The notes beneath the pieces are model-generated. The model had not been told where the DNA came from. It made no database searches and saw only the letters and a list, made by a program, of their open reading frames with translations. The position numbers were made by a program, and so were the translations under genes. Source: Escherichia phage pEC-M719-6WT.2. From it: a stretch of DNA of 64,000 bases. Shown here piece by piece: positions 17,213 to 60,199 of the stretch (position 1 is its first letter; each line of letters starts with the position of its first letter). Where the stretch lies: the sequence record OQ845958.1; one strand, given 5' to 3'.

Positions 17213-17846
17213 ACGTCTTTAAAGCCTCTGCGAGAGCCATAAAGGCGTCATCGGCACTGGTATCGGCAACTGCCGTTTGTGATTCTGTAATCTGCTTTGG
17301 TTTGACCCAAGCGTCCGGAGCACTTGGCCCCCATACTGCATCTACTCCAACCGTCAATTTAAAACCTTCATTAACGATGCTATAACCTTTTGCTGATTTA
17401 GTCAAGGAACCAAGTCCACGACTAGATACACCTGGAATCCAACCTGCTCTTATATTTGCAGCAAGTTTATCACCTGGGCCATGGTCGCCTTCGATAATAC
17501 GTGCGCGGCCATATACATCATTACCTTTCCACCACATATCTTCAATAATAATAGCGGCTTGCATAGGGTCGACGTTAGCACGGGGCGGATGATTTAATTC
17601 TCCTAAAGCTTGTTTAGTAGCAACCTGTTCTGTCATATAATCAGCAACGGCTTTTTCCAAAATATGTTTAGGATAAAGTCGTTTATTACGGTTAACAACT
17701 TCAGCTTGTAGGAAAATACCTTCAATATAAAGTCCTGGCTTTAAACCGCTGCTGGAACCGTCATGAGATTCCAACATCGGTACACCATCTTTAATTTCGC
17801 CCGGTTGACCCCAGTGTTCAATTAGTAACTCTGGTTTCTGTTCCAT
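17208..17846 (-). CDS. 21: Prohead protease gp21
   Basis: 212 aa; strong match to T4 gp21 (GELNHPPRANVDPMQAAIIIEDMWWKGNDVYGRAR). Confidence 0.95.
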   Translation of the reverse strand: MEQKPELLIEHWGQPGEIKDGVPMLESHDGSSSGLKPGLYIEGIFLQAEVVNRNKRLYPKHILEKAVADYMTEQVATKQALGELNHPPRANVDPMQAAIIIEDMWWKGNDVYGRARIIEGDHGPGDKLAANIRAGWIPGVSSRGLGSLTKSAKGYSIVNEGFKLTVGVDAVWGPSAPDAWVKPKQITESQTAVADTSADDAFMALAEALKTL

Positions 17847-52520: not shown

Positions 52521-52575
52521 GTGTACATCCGAATTGACTGGATGCATAATGATTCCATACTGAGTTACACACTGA
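52521..52575 (+). promoter_or_regulatory. Early promoter cassette (GTGTAC-N18-CATAAT) with conserved leader CCATACTGAGTTA
   Basis: GTGTAC 52521-52526, CATAAT 52545-52550. Confidence 0.5.
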
Positions 52576-52601
52576 ATCAAACAAAACTTTGGAGAAATAA
52601 A

Positions 52602-53027
52602 ATGAACTTCCTGACCCTGACTTCTGCATTCTCTGTTACCCGCATCACTAACAAAATGGTTGCCGACGAAGTATGTGAAATCTGCATTCGTGAAGATGCA
52701 CTTATTCATCTGACTTCAACCCAGATTGTTGCCATCGCTAAGTCCCTTAATTCTGAACTGAAGGTAAACACCAAACAGTCAAAAGAATCTATCATTGAAT
52801 TAATCCAAGCTGAAATGATTGAATTCCCAATTGAAGAAGTTAAAGAAGAAAAAATCCAGTCCAAATCTGGTAATGCTCGTGACATTTGCTTCCAGGCATT
52901 TGCAGAAATTGATATGGCAGATGGTGCAGCTCGCCGCGCCCTGATTGATGTTCTGGTTAACACCCATGATATCAAAAAGACTGTTGTTCAGTCATATGCT
53001 TCCAACTTCCGCAAAGCTCAAAAATAA
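52602..53027 (+). CDS. Hypothetical protein, paralog of the 53111 ORF (shared C-terminal domain)
   Basis: Start moved to ATG 52602; C-terminus GAARRALIDVLV...VVQSYASNFRK shared with the next gene. Confidence 0.55.
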   Translation: MNFLTLTSAFSVTRITNKMVADEVCEICIREDALIHLTSTQIVAIAKSLNSELKVNTKQSKESIIELIQAEMIEFPIEEVKEEKIQSKSGNARDICFQAFAEIDMADGAARRALIDVLVNTHDIKKTVVQSYASNFRKAQK

Positions 53028-53038
53028 TTGAGAAAAGT

Positions 53039-53075
53039 GTTTTACTTCCAGGTGGGATAGTGTATAATTATCCCA
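53039..53075 (+). promoter_or_regulatory. Early promoter / stem-loop cassette (TTTTAC-N17-TATAAT within GGGATA..TATCCC)
   Basis: TATAAT 53063-53068, stem GGGATA 53054-53059 / TATCCC 53070-53075, then leader CATACTGAGTTACCAAATAAA. Confidence 0.55.
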
Positions 53076-53110
53076 TACTGAGTTACCAAATAAACAAACG
53101 GGATAATAAA

Positions 53111-53554
53111 ATGAAAACTTCAAAACTGGTTAAGTACGTTAAGCTGGCATTAAACAACTCTTCTGAAGCTGAAGCACAATCCGCAGCACGTATGTTCTTC
53201 AAACGTCTGGCAGCTGAAGGTATTTCATTTAACCCGGCAGTATTTGGTATCACTCGTGGCGAAGCTGCTAAACTGGCAACTCTGGCAGGTAAAATTTTTA
53301 AAGGTCTGAATGATGGACAGGTTAAACCAGAAGTTAAACCTACTCCTAAAGCTGAACCAAAAGCTGAACGTAAGGCACCTAAACGCTCCGGTATGAGCAA
53401 CAAAGATTTATGCTATGATATGTTCAAAACTGTTAATATGTCTAATGGTGCTGCTCGCAGAGCTGTTATTGATATGATTGTGCGTGAGTTTGGATTCAAC
53501 AAAGCATCAGTTCAGTCTTATGCTTCCAACTTCCGCAAAGAATTTGAAATTTAA
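53111..53554 (+). CDS. Hypothetical protein, paralog of the 52602 ORF
   Basis: Start moved to ATG 53111; C-terminus GAARRAVIDMIV...SVQSYASNFRK; Lys/Pro/Glu-rich linker. Confidence 0.55.
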   Translation: MKTSKLVKYVKLALNNSSEAEAQSAARMFFKRLAAEGISFNPAVFGITRGEAAKLATLAGKIFKGLNDGQVKPEVKPTPKAEPKAERKAPKRSGMSNKDLCYDMFKTVNMSNGAARRAVIDMIVREFGFNKASVQSYASNFRKEFEI

Positions 53555-54015: not shown

Positions 54016-54609
54016 ATGAATACTTTAAAGAAACTTGTTGAATTCATCCGCTCCAAACTGGGGACTGCAATGGCAAAAAACCTGTCTATTGAAGACCAAT
54101 ATACTCAAGCGGCGTCTACCCTGATTGACAAGATTACTGAGCTCCAGACCGCCCACGTTAAGTCTGTTAATGAAGAAAAACGCATCCGCGAGTTAGCGAA
54201 TGAAAAAGACCAACTCGCCGCCTCAAAAGAGCGTGAAATCCGCAAACTGATTGCTGATGGTGCGGATGTCCAGGTCCATGCTAAACTGGGTCTCCTGTAT
54301 CGTCGCACTGCTAAACAACTTCGTAAGAAGGCAGACGATTATGTTGAAATGCGTAATGAAATTAAATTGAAAGTTAAAGAGCTGGATGATTCTCGTCAGG
54401 AACTAGCTGTTAAACTGGAATACATCCGCGAAACCCGTAAGGTATCTGCCCTGGGTATTGCGACTGCAGATGATGTTGTTGAAATCGCTGCATTGACTAA
54501 GATTGATATTGAAGACACCTTGATGCGTGTTGAAACCTTCAAAGGTCCACAGGTTGGTGTGGATACCACGTCCGCTGACATTGAAGAATACATCAATTCA
54601 CTTAAGTAA
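54016..54609 (+). CDS. Hypothetical coiled-coil protein
   Basis: 197 aa, heptad-like charged repeats throughout; hairpin terminator follows. Confidence 0.55.
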
Positions 54610-54651
54610 GATAAAGGGGGCAAAGCCCCCTAATTGGGAGAGGAGAAAATT

Positions 54652-55206
54652 ATGACTTTATATGATAATCTTTTATCAAATGTGGAATGGTTTGGCGGTA
54701 GTGGTCTTGCCACTGAAACTAACACAGTTCTTTATAGAATCCGCCGCGACTTGGGCTATTCCAATGATTTCTTAAGAAGAACAACAAGTCGCGGCGATAC
54801 TACCAAATTGCCTTTTATTTTTGCTTTAGCTGAAGACCTTTCTTTCGCAGATGCCTTGGAAATTATTGATGTAAATCTGGGTATTCAACGAGTGGAATTC
54901 GCTGGACTACGTTATTCAGTATATGCTTTAAACGAACCAAGTGATTATAAACAGCTTACTAATGCGGACGATGATGACCATTTGGTATGTTATTTGATGT
55001 TAGAAAATGGTGACCACTTTGGAATGGTTGACCGCCGTCCAGCTTATACTGATATTAAAAATTATGATAAAGATGAGCTTCTTGATTTGGCGGCTGAGTA
55101 TACATTAGAGGGTCGTAAACGGAAACGTAAGCTTAATCGTTTTATTGCTGAATGTCGTGAATATGCTAAAGGGGTTCAAAATGCGAACGTTATATCTGCC
55201 AAGTAA
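54652..55206 (+). CDS. Hypothetical protein ending in FIAECREY (C-terminal motif family)
   Basis: Start set to ATG 54652 after GAGAGGAG RBS. Confidence 0.5.
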   Translation: MTLYDNLLSNVEWFGGSGLATETNTVLYRIRRDLGYSNDFLRRTTSRGDTTKLPFIFALAEDLSFADALEIIDVNLGIQRVEFAGLRYSVYALNEPSDYKQLTNADDDDHLVCYLMLENGDHFGMVDRRPAYTDIKNYDKDELLDLAAEYTLEGRKRKRKLNRFIAECREYAKGVQNANVISAK

Positions 55207-55540
55207 ACCAGAAAAATTTGTATACGCAGACAAGATTGATAAAGACCTTATGCCAGCATTTGGGGCTCTGTCCATATGCATCGTTGGGGTTATAATGGTG
55301 GTGCTTTGTGGGGATATGGATATCATTAGTGTTGGAGTTGCCTGGGCGCTAATAATCGCAGCTCCTTTTATTACGGTCCTGAGTATGATATTGATAAATG
55401 TGTGGCATCAAAATCATATGAATAAAGGATATCGTGGGCGAGTTAAAGAGTGGGAACAAAAATGTATTTCCCTACAAGAAGAGCACAAAATTAAATGTGC
55501 CGAAGAATTTATTAAGGAGGTTCGTAATGGAACGGCCTAG
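55181..55540 (+). CDS. Small membrane protein (2 TM), C-terminal EEFIKEVRNG
   Basis: Start set to ATG 55181 after AAAGGGG; two hydrophobic helices. Confidence 0.5.
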   Translation: MRTLYLPSKPEKFVYADKIDKDLMPAFGALSICIVGVIMVVLCGDMDIISVGVAWALIIAAPFITVLSMILINVWHQNHMNKGYRGRVKEWEQKCISLQEEHKIKCAEEFIKEVRNGTA

Positions 55541-55880
55541 TCTTACATCACATGTTTATCAATTGGCTGAATATGATATTGGTGCCAATTTATTATTAGG
55601 GATTGCCACCGGTATGCTTGGTGGTTTGGTTGGTCTGGTAATGACCACGGTTATGGCTGCAATCGAGGGAGTCATGCCTATTGAGATGGGCTTCTTTATG
55701 ATAATCGCTCCGGCTGTTGTGGCTTATTTTATCCCTGTTGTGTATGATATCTGTCACACAAATGCCTTGAATGCTCCTAGTCGGAAGAGATACGCTTCAG
55801 CAATGGCTGAGTATAATAAGTTCCTAGACAAAACAAAACGTAATGACCTTGAAACCTTTATTAAGGAATGTAAATCATGA
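55527..55880 (+). CDS. Small membrane protein (2-3 TM), C-terminal ETFIKECKS
   Basis: Start set to ATG 55527, whose RBS AAGGAGG is encoded by the C-terminal codons of the upstream gene. Confidence 0.5.
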   Translation: MERPSLTSHVYQLAEYDIGANLLLGIATGMLGGLVGLVMTTVMAAIEGVMPIEMGFFMIIAPAVVAYFIPVVYDICHTNALNAPSRKRYASAMAEYNKFLDKTKRNDLETFIKECKS

Positions 55881-56167
55881 ATAAAATTGAAATTGCTATC
55901 CCCAAGTATTATGATGAGAAATCTGCAGAAAAAGCTATCTATTCTCTTCTAAATAAGACCTCTGAAATTGAAAAACACTGTGAAGAAATCGCAGATGAAT
56001 ATGGTATCCAATTCGGTACCGGTGATTATGGTTCAGGCCGTACATATTATCCTGTCGGTTATGAGTGCTCCCAGTGGTTTAAAGATGAAATTGAAAACAA
56101 CGGCGGCGAAGTTGAAAACGGTGTCGTTACAGTTGGTGCTTGGGTCTCCTCTTCGGCAATGTGCTAA
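55877..56167 (+). CDS. Small protein, WVSSSxxC-tail family member A
   Basis: 96 aa ending WVSSSAMC; ATGA overlap with the upstream gene. Confidence 0.55.
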   Translation: MNKIEIAIPKYYDEKSAEKAIYSLLNKTSEIEKHCEEIADEYGIQFGTGDYGSGRTYYPVGYECSQWFKDEIENNGGEVENGVVTVGAWVSSSAMC

Positions 56168-56176
56168 GGAAACGCT

Positions 56177-56458
56177 ATGATGAATGATTACCGTAAAAAT
56201 AAAGAACTGGCTAACGCAGTAAATGATATCCATAAAGCTATTCGTCGTGCCGAGGAAATTGCAAACAAATATGAGACTCATTTTAATATATACCCTGCTC
56301 GCGGTATGGGCGGTGACTATTATTCTCCTGGTGCCTTGAAAGCTGACCTTGCCCATTGGGAAGAACATGGCCATCCTGAATGGGCTATTGTTAACACTCA
56401 TGACTATACAACTGACCTGGAAAATGGCGGATGGGTGTCCTCCTCTTCTGAATGTTAA
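56177..56458 (+). CDS. Small protein, WVSSSxxC-tail family member B
   Basis: 93 aa ending WVSSSSEC; shares GDY..G and ENGG motifs with member A. Confidence 0.55.
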   Translation: MMNDYRKNKELANAVNDIHKAIRRAEEIANKYETHFNIYPARGMGGDYYSPGALKADLAHWEEHGHPEWAIVNTHDYTTDLENGGWVSSSSEC

Positions 56459-56466
56459 GGAATTAT

Positions 56467-56664
56467 ATGTCTCGTGAATTAGATTGTGCAATCCGTACTG
56501 CCGCGGCAGCTATTGAAAACGTTATCCAGATTTGTAAAGAAGAACGCGAAGAAGCTGATATCTACATTGATGGTGTTCGTGACCTAGAACGACATATTAC
56601 GCTTTATAATGGTTGTATTACAATTAGTGGTACCTCTTGGGTGTCCTCCTCTTACGAATGCTAA
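56467..56664 (+). CDS. Small protein, WVSSSxxC-tail family member C
   Basis: About 65 aa ending WVSSSYEC; start set to ATG 56467 after TAAGGAA. Confidence 0.5.
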   Translation: MSRELDCAIRTAAAAIENVIQICKEEREEADIYIDGVRDLERHITLYNGCITISGTSWVSSSYEC

Positions 56665-56674
56665 GGAATAAAAA

Positions 56675-56899
56675 ATGACTGATATTAACGAATTAGAAAA
56701 AGCTGCTCTTGAACTGGCTGCCCTGTATAAGAAAGTAAAAGATATGGCTTCTGCTCAGGATTTTGGTGTTGAGCTAGATGATTATGACGGTGAAGTTCGT
56801 CTTGAAGATTGGCTGAATAGCTCTTGTTACGGCGAAGAAGCTGGTCGCACCTTCGTTGCCCGCGCCGACGGTAAAATCTGGTACCCGAGCTCATGCTAA
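56675..56899 (+). CDS. Small protein, divergent tail-family member D (ends WYPSSC)
   Basis: 74 aa ending IWYPSSC. Confidence 0.5.
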   Translation: MTDINELEKAALELAALYKKVKDMASAQDFGVELDDYDGEVRLEDWLNSSCYGEEAGRTFVARADGKIWYPSSC

Positions 56900-57120
56900 A
56901 ATTAAAGAAAAGATACATTAGTAAAATAAATGGTCTTCGCGATTATGCCAAAGGTTGGCCATTAAGTATTATTATGGCTGATAGACATCCACGTTATAAT
57001 AACGAGTTGACTTATTACAAAAAGTATGATTCATATTGTCGGTCTAAAGCGGGTCGTTTAGATGGTTCCTATGAAGAATATTTCGGTAAAAAACCTACTC
57101 GTATTTCGTTAGGAAAATAA
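56893..57120 (+). CDS. Hypothetical small basic protein
   Basis: 75 aa overlapping the previous stop; weak RBS. Confidence 0.4.
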   Translation: MLKLKKRYISKINGLRDYAKGWPLSIIMADRHPRYNNELTYYKKYDSYCRSKAGRLDGSYEEYFGKKPTRISLGK

Positions 57121-57222
57121 TTTAATCACAAGGATGTGATAAGAAAATTATGTACAAGATTTAGTATACAAGTCTAAAGAAACGTAGTATCATTATCTTT
57201 GTCAACTAATGAGGAAAATATT

Positions 57223-58182
57223 ATGATGTTAGTTATTGGTTCTCGTGCATTACATAACGCTGGTCTGATTGAAAGTCAGAAAATTGAAAACTCTGATTGG
57301 GACTTCATCGCAGACCAAGGTTCCTGGAACAGCTTTAAAACCCAGATGATGGGACAACACGTGCATGTGGATAACCCAGATGTTCAAGCTTTTAAATGTA
57401 TGCACAATGGTAAAGAAACCTATTTTGAAGCGTACATCGTCCGCGCACTGACAAGTGTTCGTGAATTGACTGATGAGTTACAAGAGGAAGATTTTACCTC
57501 CAGTTATCGTCTGCTCAAATATGCGAAGGCAAATATTCAGAAAGACCGTCTATCTGGTTTTTACTGGGCAACTCCTGATATTTGTCTGGCAATTAAATTG
57601 TCTCATCGTTACCTGAAGAACAATCCATTCTTCCTGAAGACCATGAGTCATATTAATTACCTTCGCAATAAGGGTGTTGTTCTTAATGACGAACTGCAGA
57701 AAATCATGCTGCAACGCCAGGCAGAAACATTGTCGTATAGTCACCCTAAACTAGACGTGGGCAAGAAAACTTTCTTTAATGATACAATCTATACCCTTGA
57801 CCATGACTCCATCCACGAGGCCGTGGCGCTTGCTGATAAGCCTGCATATAAGTTCTATATGAAGGATGATTCAGAAGTCATGACCTCGCGTGAAAAATTT
57901 GAAGCACTCCCTGAGATTATTAAACTGGCAGGGGTTTATGAAGAAGCATGTGTGCTCGCTCTGGAGCGTTCGCAGGTTCCTAATGAGTTCAATATCTCTC
58001 CATCTGTGAGCTTCCATATTGCGCTAGAAAAAGTCTGTACCTCCATTACTTCTGGATGGTTCCGTGAGTACGCCTGGGAACATTACCAGGAAGTGGTTAA
58101 TATGTACAACACCCTGGGCCGCGAAGACTATGTTAAACGTTTCAAGGCTAACCAACATTTAATTCGTCCTTTCGAAAAATAA
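57223..58182 (+). CDS. Hypothetical protein with possible nucleotidyltransferase-fold motif
   Basis: Start set to ATG 57223 after GAGGA RBS; N-terminal IGSRAL-x17-SDWDFI resembles the hG[GS]...D.D NTase signature. Confidence 0.55.
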   Translation: MMLVIGSRALHNAGLIESQKIENSDWDFIADQGSWNSFKTQMMGQHVHVDNPDVQAFKCMHNGKETYFEAYIVRALTSVRELTDELQEEDFTSSYRLLKYAKANIQKDRLSGFYWATPDICLAIKLSHRYLKNNPFFLKTMSHINYLRNKGVVLNDELQKIMLQRQAETLSYSHPKLDVGKKTFFNDTIYTLDHDSIHEAVALADKPAYKFYMKDDSEVMTSREKFEALPEIIKLAGVYEEACVLALERSQVPNEFNISPSVSFHIALEKVCTSITSGWFREYAWEHYQEVVNMYNTLGREDYVKRFKANQHLIRPFEK

Positions 58183-58241
58183 GTGTGTACAACAAAGTAG
58201 GACTATGACACAATGGTCCCACAATCAATGAGGAAAATATT

Positions 58242-58928
58242 ATGAACGGTCCGAAAACTTTTAATAGTCAAGCTCGTGCAGTTGGTGGTTTTGCACATAA
58301 CGTACAAAATGACCAAATCAAAAATGAACCAATGTTCTTTAACTGTGATTTGAGTTTTGCTTGGGATAATGGTGGCCCAATCACTCGTAGCTTTATTGCC
58401 AATCTCCCAATTGATTGGACTAATCAACATGTTGTATTTGATTCCCGGGTTCATATGCTGATGCCTGGTTGGTATCCCGCTATCCCAGGTTATCACCATG
58501 ATGATGTGCCACGTCCGGATATTCCGGTGGGTCAACACTTTATTACTGCAGGCCAACCTGATTATGATAATCCTCGATACTATTCTGAACATATTCTTGG
58601 TCTTGTTAACGCTGATGTGTGTCCTACTTATTTTGCAACCGGAACTGCACAATTTAGTCAGATTCCTGAAGGCGAACTTATCTATCGTCAGTGGCATAAA
58701 GAAGTTCTGGAAAAAATTGAGTCCAATGAATTAACCAAGTGGGATGCTCCTGACCGCACATTGCTCCAGTTTGATTGGCAGACATGGCATACAGGTTCTC
58801 GCGCAGTAAGTAACGGGTGGCGCTGGTTTGGTCGTGTGTCTCGTAATACTGACCGTGTTAAAAAGATTACAAATGAAATCCGCGTTAATGCTCAAGTATA
58901 TCTGGAATTCCCTATGGAGGGCTGGTAA
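58242..58928 (+). CDS. Hypothetical Trp/His-rich protein
   Basis: 228 aa with GAGGA RBS; no recognisable motif. Confidence 0.55.
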   Translation: MNGPKTFNSQARAVGGFAHNVQNDQIKNEPMFFNCDLSFAWDNGGPITRSFIANLPIDWTNQHVVFDSRVHMLMPGWYPAIPGYHHDDVPRPDIPVGQHFITAGQPDYDNPRYYSEHILGLVNADVCPTYFATGTAQFSQIPEGELIYRQWHKEVLEKIESNELTKWDAPDRTLLQFDWQTWHTGSRAVSNGWRWFGRVSRNTDRVKKITNEIRVNAQVYLEFPMEGW

Positions 58929-59515
58929 TGGCCCTTTATGAGCCTGGGTGCATGGGTGTTGATGTAAACTTCATCCGCCGGGCAGAAAATGCAGGTATAA
59001 TTGTATCAAGAGACGAATTTATGATTACCAAAAAATATTGGGCGAACCTTGATGATGGTGATGAAGGAATCAAGGTGGAAAATGTTGATTGGTCGCGATG
59101 CAATCGTCATGTGAAAGAGCTTTTAATTAAGGAATATAAAATGGGATACATCATTAATGGGCATCAACCAGAACCGCTCAAAGAACAGACACCCGACCCA
59201 TTAATTTCTTATAGCAAGAAATATGGATTTCGTACCTGGAGTGATGAATTTGATAAGTTAATTTGTTCCAGGTTTTATGCCTGGGCTGGAATCTTATTTT
59301 TACCATTCCTGTGGTTTTTCTTGACAGGCAAAAATGAAGCACCCGTGGCTGTAATGGGTGCGTGCTTTTCTACTGCTCTCGCTGGGCTTATTGCATCATT
59401 TTTATGGACTATGGTTATTGAAGTACCTTTTCGTATTTCTAAAGTTAAAAAGGTATATGACGATATCACTAAGAAAAATACATTGAACTCCTTTATTGAG
59501 GAATGCCGTAAATGA
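58928..59515 (+). CDS. Membrane protein (C-terminal 2 TM), C-terminal NSFIEECRK
   Basis: 195 aa; hydrophobic helices near C-terminus; ATGA-type overlap. Confidence 0.55.
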   Translation: MALYEPGCMGVDVNFIRRAENAGIIVSRDEFMITKKYWANLDDGDEGIKVENVDWSRCNRHVKELLIKEYKMGYIINGHQPEPLKEQTPDPLISYSKKYGFRTWSDEFDKLICSRFYAWAGILFLPFLWFFLTGKNEAPVAVMGACFSTALAGLIASFLWTMVIEVPFRISKVKKVYDDITKKNTLNSFIEECRK

Positions 59516-59748
59516 GTATTGCAATTTATATTAAATCCGAGTCATGTGATTCTTATCTGTATTCCTATGATACAGGTACATCAGAAGAGAAAATCAAAGA
59601 TGATTTAGAAAGTGACTTGGATATGTTCCGCCCGATTTCTGAATACAGAATTCAAACTTCTGATAGTGAATCTCCTTCATTGGAAAATAGACTTGAATTT
59701 TTAATGAGTGATATTTTTAACCAATCATGGAAACGTGACGATGAGTAA
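59512..59748 (+). CDS. Hypothetical acidic small protein
   Basis: 78 aa; overlapping junctions on both sides. Confidence 0.5.
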   Translation: MSIAIYIKSESCDSYLYSYDTGTSEEKIKDDLESDLDMFRPISEYRIQTSDSESPSLENRLEFLMSDIFNQSWKRDDE

Positions 59749-60199
59749 GAAAAACGCAGTGAAAGAATTATCTGCTGGTATTATTTTCATGACTGAAGAT
59801 AAAGAGTTATTCATGGGACGTGTGACTGGTTCTCGTAAACCAGGCATGCCTGCGCACAAATGGGACATTCCTAAGGGTCATGTTGAAGCATGTGAATCCC
59901 CGATTGAAGCGGCTATCCGTGAAACCGAAGAAGAAACCGGGTTTACCCAATACGACCCGGCATTCTTAAAGGACCTGGGTGAATTCCGCTATTCAGATAA
60001 CAAAAATCTTCACCTGTTTTTGTACACGGTTCCGGTCGAGCATGAACAGTTTAGACATAGTAAATGCTCTGCCTATCATACCTTCCCGGATGGTAGTTCG
60101 GTTCCAGAGTTCGATGCATTTGCTCTGATTAAACCGAGTCAATGGCAGTATGTGATGGGCAAATCGATGTACAAGGTAATGACTCAAATTTTCGGATAA
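59741..60199 (+). CDS. nudE: Nudix hydrolase NudE
   Basis: Nudix box (GHVEACESPIEAAIRETEEETG); position immediately upstream of e as T4 e.1; start set to ATG 59741. Confidence 0.85.
   Translation: MSKKNAVKELSAGIIFMTEDKELFMGRVTGSRKPGMPAHKWDIPKGHVEACESPIEAAIRETEEETGFTQYDPAFLKDLGEFRYSDNKNLHLFLYTVPVEHEQFRHSKCSAYHTFPDGSSVPEFDAFALIKPSQWQYVMGKSMYKVMTQIFG

Follow-up and report, generated by a model that had tools for sequence, protein, structure and literature searches.

In the Psp and Lia systems, small membrane proteins (PspB and PspC in the former, and LiaI with two transmembrane (TM) helices in the latter) bind or anchor a PspA homologue (PspA and LiaH, respectively). In bacteriophage T4, the proteins gp43, gp55 and gp33 share an interchangeable, hydrophobic, clamp-binding C-terminus (PMC2988020). 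Moreover, T4-type phages are known to shuffle genes by means of PeSLs, short repeats at gene boundaries in hyperplastic regions, and single genes are gained or lost when these repeats recombine (PMC2839356). In this study, a stretch of 64,000 nucleotides from Escherichia phage pEC-M719-6WT.2 (OQ845958.1; hereafter the window) was analyzed, with the focus on four open reading frames (ORFs) of its e gene cluster that end in similar peptides. The original prediction, made from the sequence alone, had described these endings as a reusable junction cassette for translational coupling between genes of small membrane proteins. The shared tail was found to be real and wider than that prediction had seen, and the cause proposed there was a secondary overlay. 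The shared ending is probably a conserved peptide that is selected at the protein level and serves as a docking helix for a common partner, and the probability of this explanation was estimated at roughly 0.6.

The window belongs to a Gaprivervirus (T4-like) with 95-96% identity to ECML-359 and vB_EcoM_RZ. The stretch in question is an early-gene cluster, whose T4 counterpart precedes nudE and the lysozyme gene e, and the four ORFs are counterparts of T4 e.5, e.4, e.3 and e.2. The cluster is ordered e.6-e.5-e.4-e.3-...-e.2-nudE-e, as in T4, except that 3 kb of additional genes separate e.3 from e.2 in the window. The position of these genes between e.6 and nudE on one strand holds in the window, SP18, RZ, T4 and RB69. 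The four genes and their tails are as follows.

54652-55206, plus strand: gene at the e.5 position, 184 aa, phrog_8788, no TM helix
55132-55158, plus strand: its tail, LNRFIAECR, followed by 15 further residues and the stop
55181-55540, plus strand: e.4 homologue, 119 aa, phrog_2604, TM codons at 55256-55312 and 55340-55396
55499-55525, plus strand: e.4 variant tail, AEEFIKEVR, in which Val replaces Cys
55527-55880, plus strand: e.3 homologue, 117 aa, phrog_2330, TM codons at 55581-55646 and 55686-55742
55848-55874, plus strand: e.3 tail, LETFIKECK, with the Shine-Dalgarno AAGGAA (55863-55868) for the gene starting at 55877
58928-59515, plus strand: e.2 homologue, 195 aa, phrog_2203, with an N-terminal soluble domain and TM codons at 59273-59329 and 59354-59425
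59483-59509, plus strand: e.2 tail, LNSFIEECR, with the Shine-Dalgarno GAGGAA (59498-59503) for the gene starting at 59512

All four endings quoted in the original prediction exist, although NRFIAECREY is not terminal, since 15 residues follow its motif and its gene overlaps the next by 26 nt. Among all ORFs of 45 aa or more in the six frames of the window, the three matches to [FYW][IV]..C[RK] all lie at these C-termini, where composition alone predicts about 0.24 C-terminal matches, and the motif is therefore beyond chance. With a position-specific scoring matrix (PSSM) built from related tails, the e.5-position, e.3 and e.2 tails scored 23.8, 22.2 and 26.0 bits, respectively, and the e.4 variant scored 9.5 bits, compared with 7.4 bits for the best unrelated segment of the window.

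The tail was then defined on the stretch that follows e.6 in 53 loci, which were taken from 43 IMG/VR contigs and from GenBank phages of Escherichia, Klebsiella, Serratia, Aeromonas, Enterobacter and Providencia. The refined consensus was a hydrophobic residue at -3, two free positions, F at 0, [I/V], x-x, C at +4 and R at +5, followed by a basic residue and the stop. In its strict form the pattern matched 156 times within 15 residues of the C-terminus of plus-strand ORFs and not once internally in their 262,377 residues; the opposite strand gave 2 C-terminal and 7 internal matches, all of which fell in spurious ORFs. The matches comprised 91 non-redundant tails in 36 BLAST-distinct clusters of both membrane and soluble proteins. 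In the logo of the 91 tails, position -3 was hydrophobic in 87, position 0 was F in 85 (with interchange of F, Y and W), the next was I/V in all 91 and Arg was kept in 84; positions -2 and -1 were acidic or polar, the two x-x positions were variable, and K, G or R followed the Arg before the stop. In the e.4 family, S, V or I stands in place of the Cys in 13 of 14 members. The spacing of the fixed positions (-3, 0, +1 and +4, or i, i+3, i+4 and i+7) matches one face of an alpha-helix. The original prediction had named similarity limited to residues that the ribosome-binding site (RBS) dictates as grounds for its refutation. This applied by half: similarity between families was confined to about 10 residues, but the RBS dictates others.

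These comparisons indicate that, besides e.5, e.4, e.3 and e.2, the tail marks at least 30 sequence-dissimilar families between e.6 and nudE in T4-like phages, with 1-7 polymorphic tail proteins, soluble ones included, in each phage. One tail peptide thus unites dozens of otherwise unrelated orphan proteins of one cluster as a testable unit. A scan of the whole T4 genome located the tail only in e.5, e.3, the e.4 variant and the remnant of a split e.2, together with one chance match in tk. T4 e.5 ends in ..KFVKECREYVKAITIPSK, e.4 in ..KFVKESRCKSQS and e.3 in ..EFVIDCRKIK. As annotated, T4 e.2 has 102 aa and no tail. An unannotated stop-to-stop frame of 53 codons between e.2 and nudE (T4 67472-67633, minus strand; 17472-17633 in locus L063) ends in ..NLNNFITECRKLK, which is how a complete e.2 ends; the e.2 of the T4 reference therefore seems to be split, through a frameshift or a stop. 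Although no large phage has been studied better than T4, its e.2-e.6 lack an assigned function, and the sequence records assign none to e.2-e.5. The PHROGs database annotates the window proteins as 'unknown function' or 'membrane protein'. The searches of the literature on T4 e.2-e.6 or on a shared C-terminal motif of small membrane proteins returned nothing relevant; these genes are known hypothetical ORFs, and the literature searchable here holds no account of the shared tail or of a PspA-like e.6.

The assignment of the carriers to T4 genes does not depend on the tail. In BLASTP with the tail removed, the window proteins matched T4 e.4, e.3 and e.2 at E = 9e-13, 1e-6 and 5e-14, respectively, and their sequences outside the tail, together with their positions, place them in orthologous groups with these T4 genes. 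The e.5-position protein had no direct BLAST match to T4 e.5 and fell in another BLAST cluster (C4, compared with C6 for T4). Among the e.5 types, hhalign linked C1 to C6 at E = 7e-6 and C1 to the window type C4 at 1.8e-3, the latter being near the best reversed-sequence control of 2.5e-3. In an alignment of the e.5 superfamily (A3), the sole invariant residues were N94, F164, C168 and R169, three of which are the F, C and R of the tail. The e.2 family is narrow: an HMMER search of 1.84 billion representative proteins gave just 12 relatives of the e.2-like protein. A word-indexed protein search returned close relatives alone for the e.3-like protein, and the e.5-like protein found nothing in PDB sequence searches with either the single sequence or profile A3.

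Three results show that selection acts on the peptide, the third being that the Shine-Dalgarno is not tied to the conserved residues, as described below. First, the tail is kept by the homologues. In BLAST searches with the tail removed, it was retained in 23/24 homologues of e.2, 17/17 of e.3, 13/14 of e.4 and 43/45 of the e.5 types, and the tail-less exceptions among the e.2, e.4 and e.5-type homologues were truncated ORFs. Moreover, the tail was the best or second-best conserved window of nine columns in the divergent e.2, e.3 and e.5-C1 families. Second, the codons are free. Phe (TTT/TTC), Cys (TGT/TGC) and the Ile/Val codons occur in the tails at background usage, and Arg uses all six codons; the freedom of the synonymous sites at F, I/V and C therefore indicates selection on the peptide.

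The carriers share an architecture as well. According to hydropathy, the 119-, 117- and 195-aa proteins have two TM helices each, so that the membrane character claimed for three of the four ORFs was borne out and the third helix allowed for some of them was not; the 184-aa e.5-position protein has no TM helix by the same measure. In the proteins with two TM helices, a hairpin is followed by a basic stretch of 30-45 residues and then by the tail. Their loops contain 0-1 K/R and their C-termini 8-9 K/R, and by the positive-inside rule the tails are therefore predicted to be cytoplasmic. About two-thirds of the tail families have 1-3 predicted TM helices, usually two, and the others, including the whole e.5 superfamily, have none.

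On the docking explanation, the tail would be a short amphipathic helix for docking or recognition, through which diverse proteins could reach one partner, and in the membrane carriers it would be held on the cytoplasmic side after the two-TM hairpin and the basic stretch. We think that the clamp-binding C-terminus of gp43, gp55 and gp33 is the mechanistic model that the tail most resembles, because in both cases a short C-terminal motif sits on unrelated proteins, and the clamp motif docks on one hub. The two differ in consensus, the Cys-Arg pair is not found in the clamp motif, and the tail carriers are early and mostly membrane proteins. The likeliest candidate for the partner may be the product of e.6 or its host counterpart, which is speculative; the two-TM proteins would then be anchors or modulators.

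54016-54609, plus strand: e.6 homologue, 197 aa, first gene of the cluster, without a tail, considered here as context and as candidate partner

The e.6 family is rather likely, if tentatively, a relative of PspA, Vipp1 (IM30) and the ESCRT-III-like proteins. An e.6 profile (A1) matched Vipp1 chains at E = 1e-3 to 7e-3, collinearly over residues 1-140, and the AlphaFold2 (AF2) model of e.6 (pLDDT 73) shows a helix at the N-terminus, a long hairpin and short helices at the C-terminus. The superfamily fold comprises an N-terminal amphipathic helix a0 and a long a1-a2/3 hairpin, with a4 and a5 after them, and its further marks are membrane binding and polymerisation on membranes. In a Foldseek search of this model against the PDB, the top five matches were all Vipp1, followed by CdvB2 and PspA. 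One of nine e.6 family members, a divergent one, matched PF04012 (PspA_IM30) at E = 1.9e-4. A deeper, less diverse profile (A2) gave no match, and the window protein itself had no match to Pfam PspA_IM30 at E up to 1. In several public records e.6 is called 'hypothetical' or, wrongly, 'host specificity protein', and no literature on a phage PspA was found in the searches. A possible mimicry of the e.6 segments LVEFIRSK/KLEYIRETR by the tail was rejected, since the e.6 segment scored 0.9 bits with the tail PSSM, which equals background.

The tail and e.6 tend to occur together. All loci retrieved through e.6 had a tail-bearing gene immediately downstream, e.6 was present in 16/18 tail-bearing nudE loci, and 62 nudE-anchored loci without e.6 had no tails in about 1 Mb searched on both strands. 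The arrangement also recalls the Psp and Lia systems, as a PspA/IM30-like e.6 is directly followed by small inner membrane proteins with predicted cytoplasmic C-terminal segments. Since PspA homologues use small membrane partners, e.6 could have its adaptors or anchors in the tail proteins. However, the tail proteins have no sequence similarity to PspB, PspC or LiaI (in Pfam, neither the window proteins, searched at E up to 1, nor 34 representative tail proteins, searched at E up to 0.01, matched any of these), their number varies from phage to phage, some are soluble, and in two loci tails occur with no e.6 nearby. A further extension would be that T4-like phages carry their own Psp/ESCRT-III-like module of membrane maintenance, in which e.6 forms a polymer on the inner membrane, the tail proteins are its adaptors, the soluble e.5 is the constant partner and the fast-evolving two-TM proteins are interchangeable anchors, docked through the shared cytoplasmic tail on e.6 or, in phages without it, on host PspA, with control of membrane integrity, proton-motive force or lysis timing as the outcome. 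This proposal is speculative and, taken as a whole, doubtful. If e.6 is truly a PspA/Vipp1 relative, the cluster would represent a phage version of a universal machine for membrane repair and remodelling with its own set of adaptors.

Several points weigh against the docking helix. No partner or function of the tail was met in the literature searched. The helicity of the tail rests on residue spacing and on a low-confidence AF2 model of the e.5-like protein (pLDDT 49; relatives of at least 70% identity). A simple docking helix would not usually keep a Cys; the conserved Cys may point to metal binding, a disulfide or a modification, and the window e.6 translation contains no Cys that could pair with it. 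Furthermore, the co-occurrence of e.6 and the tail is confounded by phylogeny. Two loci, L067 and L076 (an IMG/VR contig of 165,540 bp), keep 2 and 5 intact tails, respectively, without e.6 within 10 kb; in both (positions 4600-9500 of L076) e.6 and e.5 are missing upstream of nudE, and neither locus appeared in the IMG/VR scan for e.6. These two loci argue against e.6 as an obligatory partner.

A different account of the shared ending is that e.4, e.3, e.2 and the other two-TM proteins form one old, tandem-duplicated family that has diverged everywhere except in the tail. The common succession of hairpin, basic stretch and tail and the tandem arrangement of the genes speak for such an origin, as do weak PHROG cross-matches with the tail included (e.4 type to phrog_2330 at E = 0.005 and e.3 type to phrog_2203 at E = 0.006) and two hhalign links that persisted after removal of the tail (C0-C19 at 5e-5 and C3-C25 at 3e-4). 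On the other hand, a comparison of the e.4, e.3 and e.2 types without their tails gave nothing convincing by hhalign: the best value was E = 8e-4 over 23 columns (C2-C3), with 0.01 for C0-C2 and 2.5e-3 for the control. A single family of membrane proteins, as originally suggested, was thus not upheld. The two-TM proteins may have a common ancestor, although this cannot be demonstrated, and such an origin is insufficient in any case because the same tail sits on soluble proteins of the e.5 superfamily and on other families without TM helices. As a full explanation, duplication is rather unlikely; it is compatible with a docking helix, as it concerns the origin of the tail and not its function. 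The assignment of these proteins to a class that includes superinfection exclusion, lysis control and immunity fared no better. The best match of an exclusion or lysis type was Pfam SieB to the e.3-like protein, with E = 0.11 and 12.5 bits against a cut-off of 26, and the 34 representative tail carriers matched no Pfam family at E up to 0.01 and no PADLOC family.

The tail might instead be a by-product of recombination, in that tail and start region together form a portable junction, the coding analogue of a PeSL, and the peptide itself has no function. The repeats that bear on this possibility are as follows.

55165-55183, plus strand: e.4 start region GCTAAAGGGGTTCAAAATG, first copy of an imperfect direct repeat that flanks the e.4 insertion or deletion
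55511-55529, plus strand: e.3 start region ATTAAGGAGGTTCGTAATG, second copy, within the e.4 tail codons, containing AAGGAGG (55514-55520)

In the JS98-like loci L007-L010, e.4 is missing exactly from its own ATG to the ATG of e.3, and the break corresponds to these two copies (about 5980-6010 in L007-L010 compared with 55165-55529 in the window). After the loss, the e.5 of these loci carries a hybrid end, ..AKEVQNGTA. Repeated start regions thus permit the clean, in-register loss of single genes, which is the same kind of event as that described for PeSLs, and in this sense the reusable junction proposed originally does exist as a modular break point. PeSLs, however, are non-coding promoter-terminator units, whereas the window repeats consist of a coding 3' end, an RBS and an ATG over about 16-19 nt and are imperfect. 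No promoter/terminator pair was found at the junctions 55141-55183, 55508-55529, 55857-55880 and 59492-59515, which are overlapping coding sequence. The presence of the tail on soluble and membrane proteins without detectable homology does imply at least one transfer or convergent gain, and some tails are more alike within a genome than between genomes, as for a Providencia phage with two Y-[IV]-K-H-C-R-G tails. Nevertheless, a neutral tail should decay, yet it is kept in nearly all intact homologues and is the best conserved segment of divergent families whose phages infect hosts from Aeromonas to Escherichia, with its synonymous sites free. In addition, the DNA identity among the window junctions is no higher than the shared amino acids demand. 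A functionless portable junction is therefore improbable.

Tags at the C-terminus direct proteins to bacterial AAA+ proteases, and T4 has genes for Arg-specific ADP-ribosyltransferases. In this context, the tail could be a C-terminal signal to a host or phage protease or modifying enzyme that times the removal or modification of early proteins, and its strictly C-terminal position, predicted cytoplasmic location, basic end and conserved Cys-Arg pair would suit such a role. ClpXP and FtsH tags are not known to have the tail consensus, however, and the motif is kept in the e.5 types in spite of 10-25 extra residues, which is a misfit for a tag that must be terminal; a degradation or modification signal is highly unlikely.

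The relation of the tail to the Shine-Dalgarno (SD) sequence was the core of the original prediction, which held that the motif codons supply the SD for the next gene and that this gene then starts by an ATGA overlap. The first part applies to three of the four junctions, at which AAGGAGG (55514-55520), AAGGAA (55863-55868) and GAGGAA (59498-59503) lie within motif codons at a spacing of 6-9 nt; at the junction from 54652 to 55181, e.4 uses a separate AAAGGGG (55168-55174) downstream of the e.5-position motif. The ATGA overlaps are found at 55877 and 59512, and the other two overlaps are of 14 and 26 nt. Only one of the four junctions (AAGGAGG, 55514-55520) contains GGAG, where RegB might cleave. 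The position of the SD in the tail codons depended on the distance from the Phe codon to the next start.

Next ATG 19-22 nt from the Phe codon, 23 tails: SD-like 4-mer in the I-x-x codons in 17 and in the C-R-x-x codons in 0; x-x mostly K-E, K-G and E-E
Next ATG 25-28 nt from the Phe codon, 38 tails: SD-like 4-mer in I-x-x in 1 and in C-R-x-x in 37; x-x diverse
Next start farther away, 30 tails: SD-like 4-mer in I-x-x in 0 and in C-R-x-x in 7; x-x diverse

The tail Arg is AGA or AGG in 45/84 tails, compared with 19% in the background (p = 2e-12), with the excess concentrated in the 25-28 nt class, where Arg mostly has the codon AGA, AGG or CGA and Gly comes next. In tails with a farther next start, the Arg codons drift back to the background. 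Consequently, register-dependent dual coding in the tail codons is real. The K-E or E-E pair is set by the next gene, F-I..C-R is kept for the protein, and the SD is a secondary overlay. The genes are packed head to tail, so that the SD of the next gene must occupy whichever tail codons are 5-12 nt upstream of its ATG; in the window these codons are those of the free x-x pair, which become K-E or E-E, and dual coding runs over the motif without being its cause. A register-dependent SD within a constrained peptide illustrates clearly how dual coding arises in nature. It shows which residues of a short motif the next gene can select for its own needs, and it cautions against counting such residues into the functional motif.

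The view that the motif is first of all a nucleic-acid junction element of 3' end, RBS and start, used for translational coupling with the amino acids as a by-product, can claim the embedded SDs, the Arg codon bias and the K-E, E-E and K-G pairs of the 19-22 nt class, but it is largely refuted as the primary cause and keeps very little probability, because the residues conserved across phages differ from those that encode the SD, the SD shifts or leaves while F-I..C-R stays (in T4 e.3, FVIDCR, the x-x codons are ATT GAT and the SD lies in the CRK codons), synonymous codon choice is free at F, I/V and C, and the cluster genes without the motif are coupled just as tightly, overlapping stop/start and embedded SDs being equally the norm among them.

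The remaining features of the cluster, in order, are as follows.

54615-54631, plus strand: G+C-rich hairpin GGGGGC AAA GCCCCC between e.6 and the e.5-like gene, from a stem-loop scan and reading of the sequence
55877-56899, plus strand: four small paralogues (phrog_899) of 65-96 aa, in tandem
56893-58928, plus strand: three further ORFs
59512-59748, plus strand: small ORF
59741-60199, plus strand: nudE
from 60226, plus strand: lysozyme gene e

T4 has a hairpin, GGGGC-TTCG-GCCCC, at the position that matches the hairpin of the window. The hairpin, which directly follows e.6, could allow e.6 to be expressed apart from the genes downstream.

Other repeated ends and starts were observed in the window. 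The phrog_899 paralogues end in W-V-S-S-S-x-x-C-stop or W-Y-P-S-S-C-stop, and the TAA stop of three of these genes belongs to the SD of the gene that follows (TAAGGAA). They represent a second family of repeated C-termini and junctions, with a terminal Cys, which is found in the same cluster of many phages. An 18-nt start region, AATGAGGAAAATATTATG, is identical at 57208-57225 and 58227-58244, before the unrelated genes that start at 57223 and 58242; similar copies in SP18 and Karamvirus loci mark it as another repeated translation-initiation cassette.

Four ORFs of the window (48754, 49053, 60726 and 61534) begin with MKTYQEF[IL].E, which is presumably the capsid-targeting sequence of T4 internal proteins, and the F-I-x-E in it is coincidental. 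A link between the tail and capsid targeting was rejected, as these sequences are N-terminal and lack C-R, and TYQEFITEAKA scored -2.5 bits with the tail PSSM, which is below background. Finally, the adjacent ORFs at 52521-53027 and 53060-53554 both end in ..V(V)QSYASNFRK.. and look like tandem paralogues.

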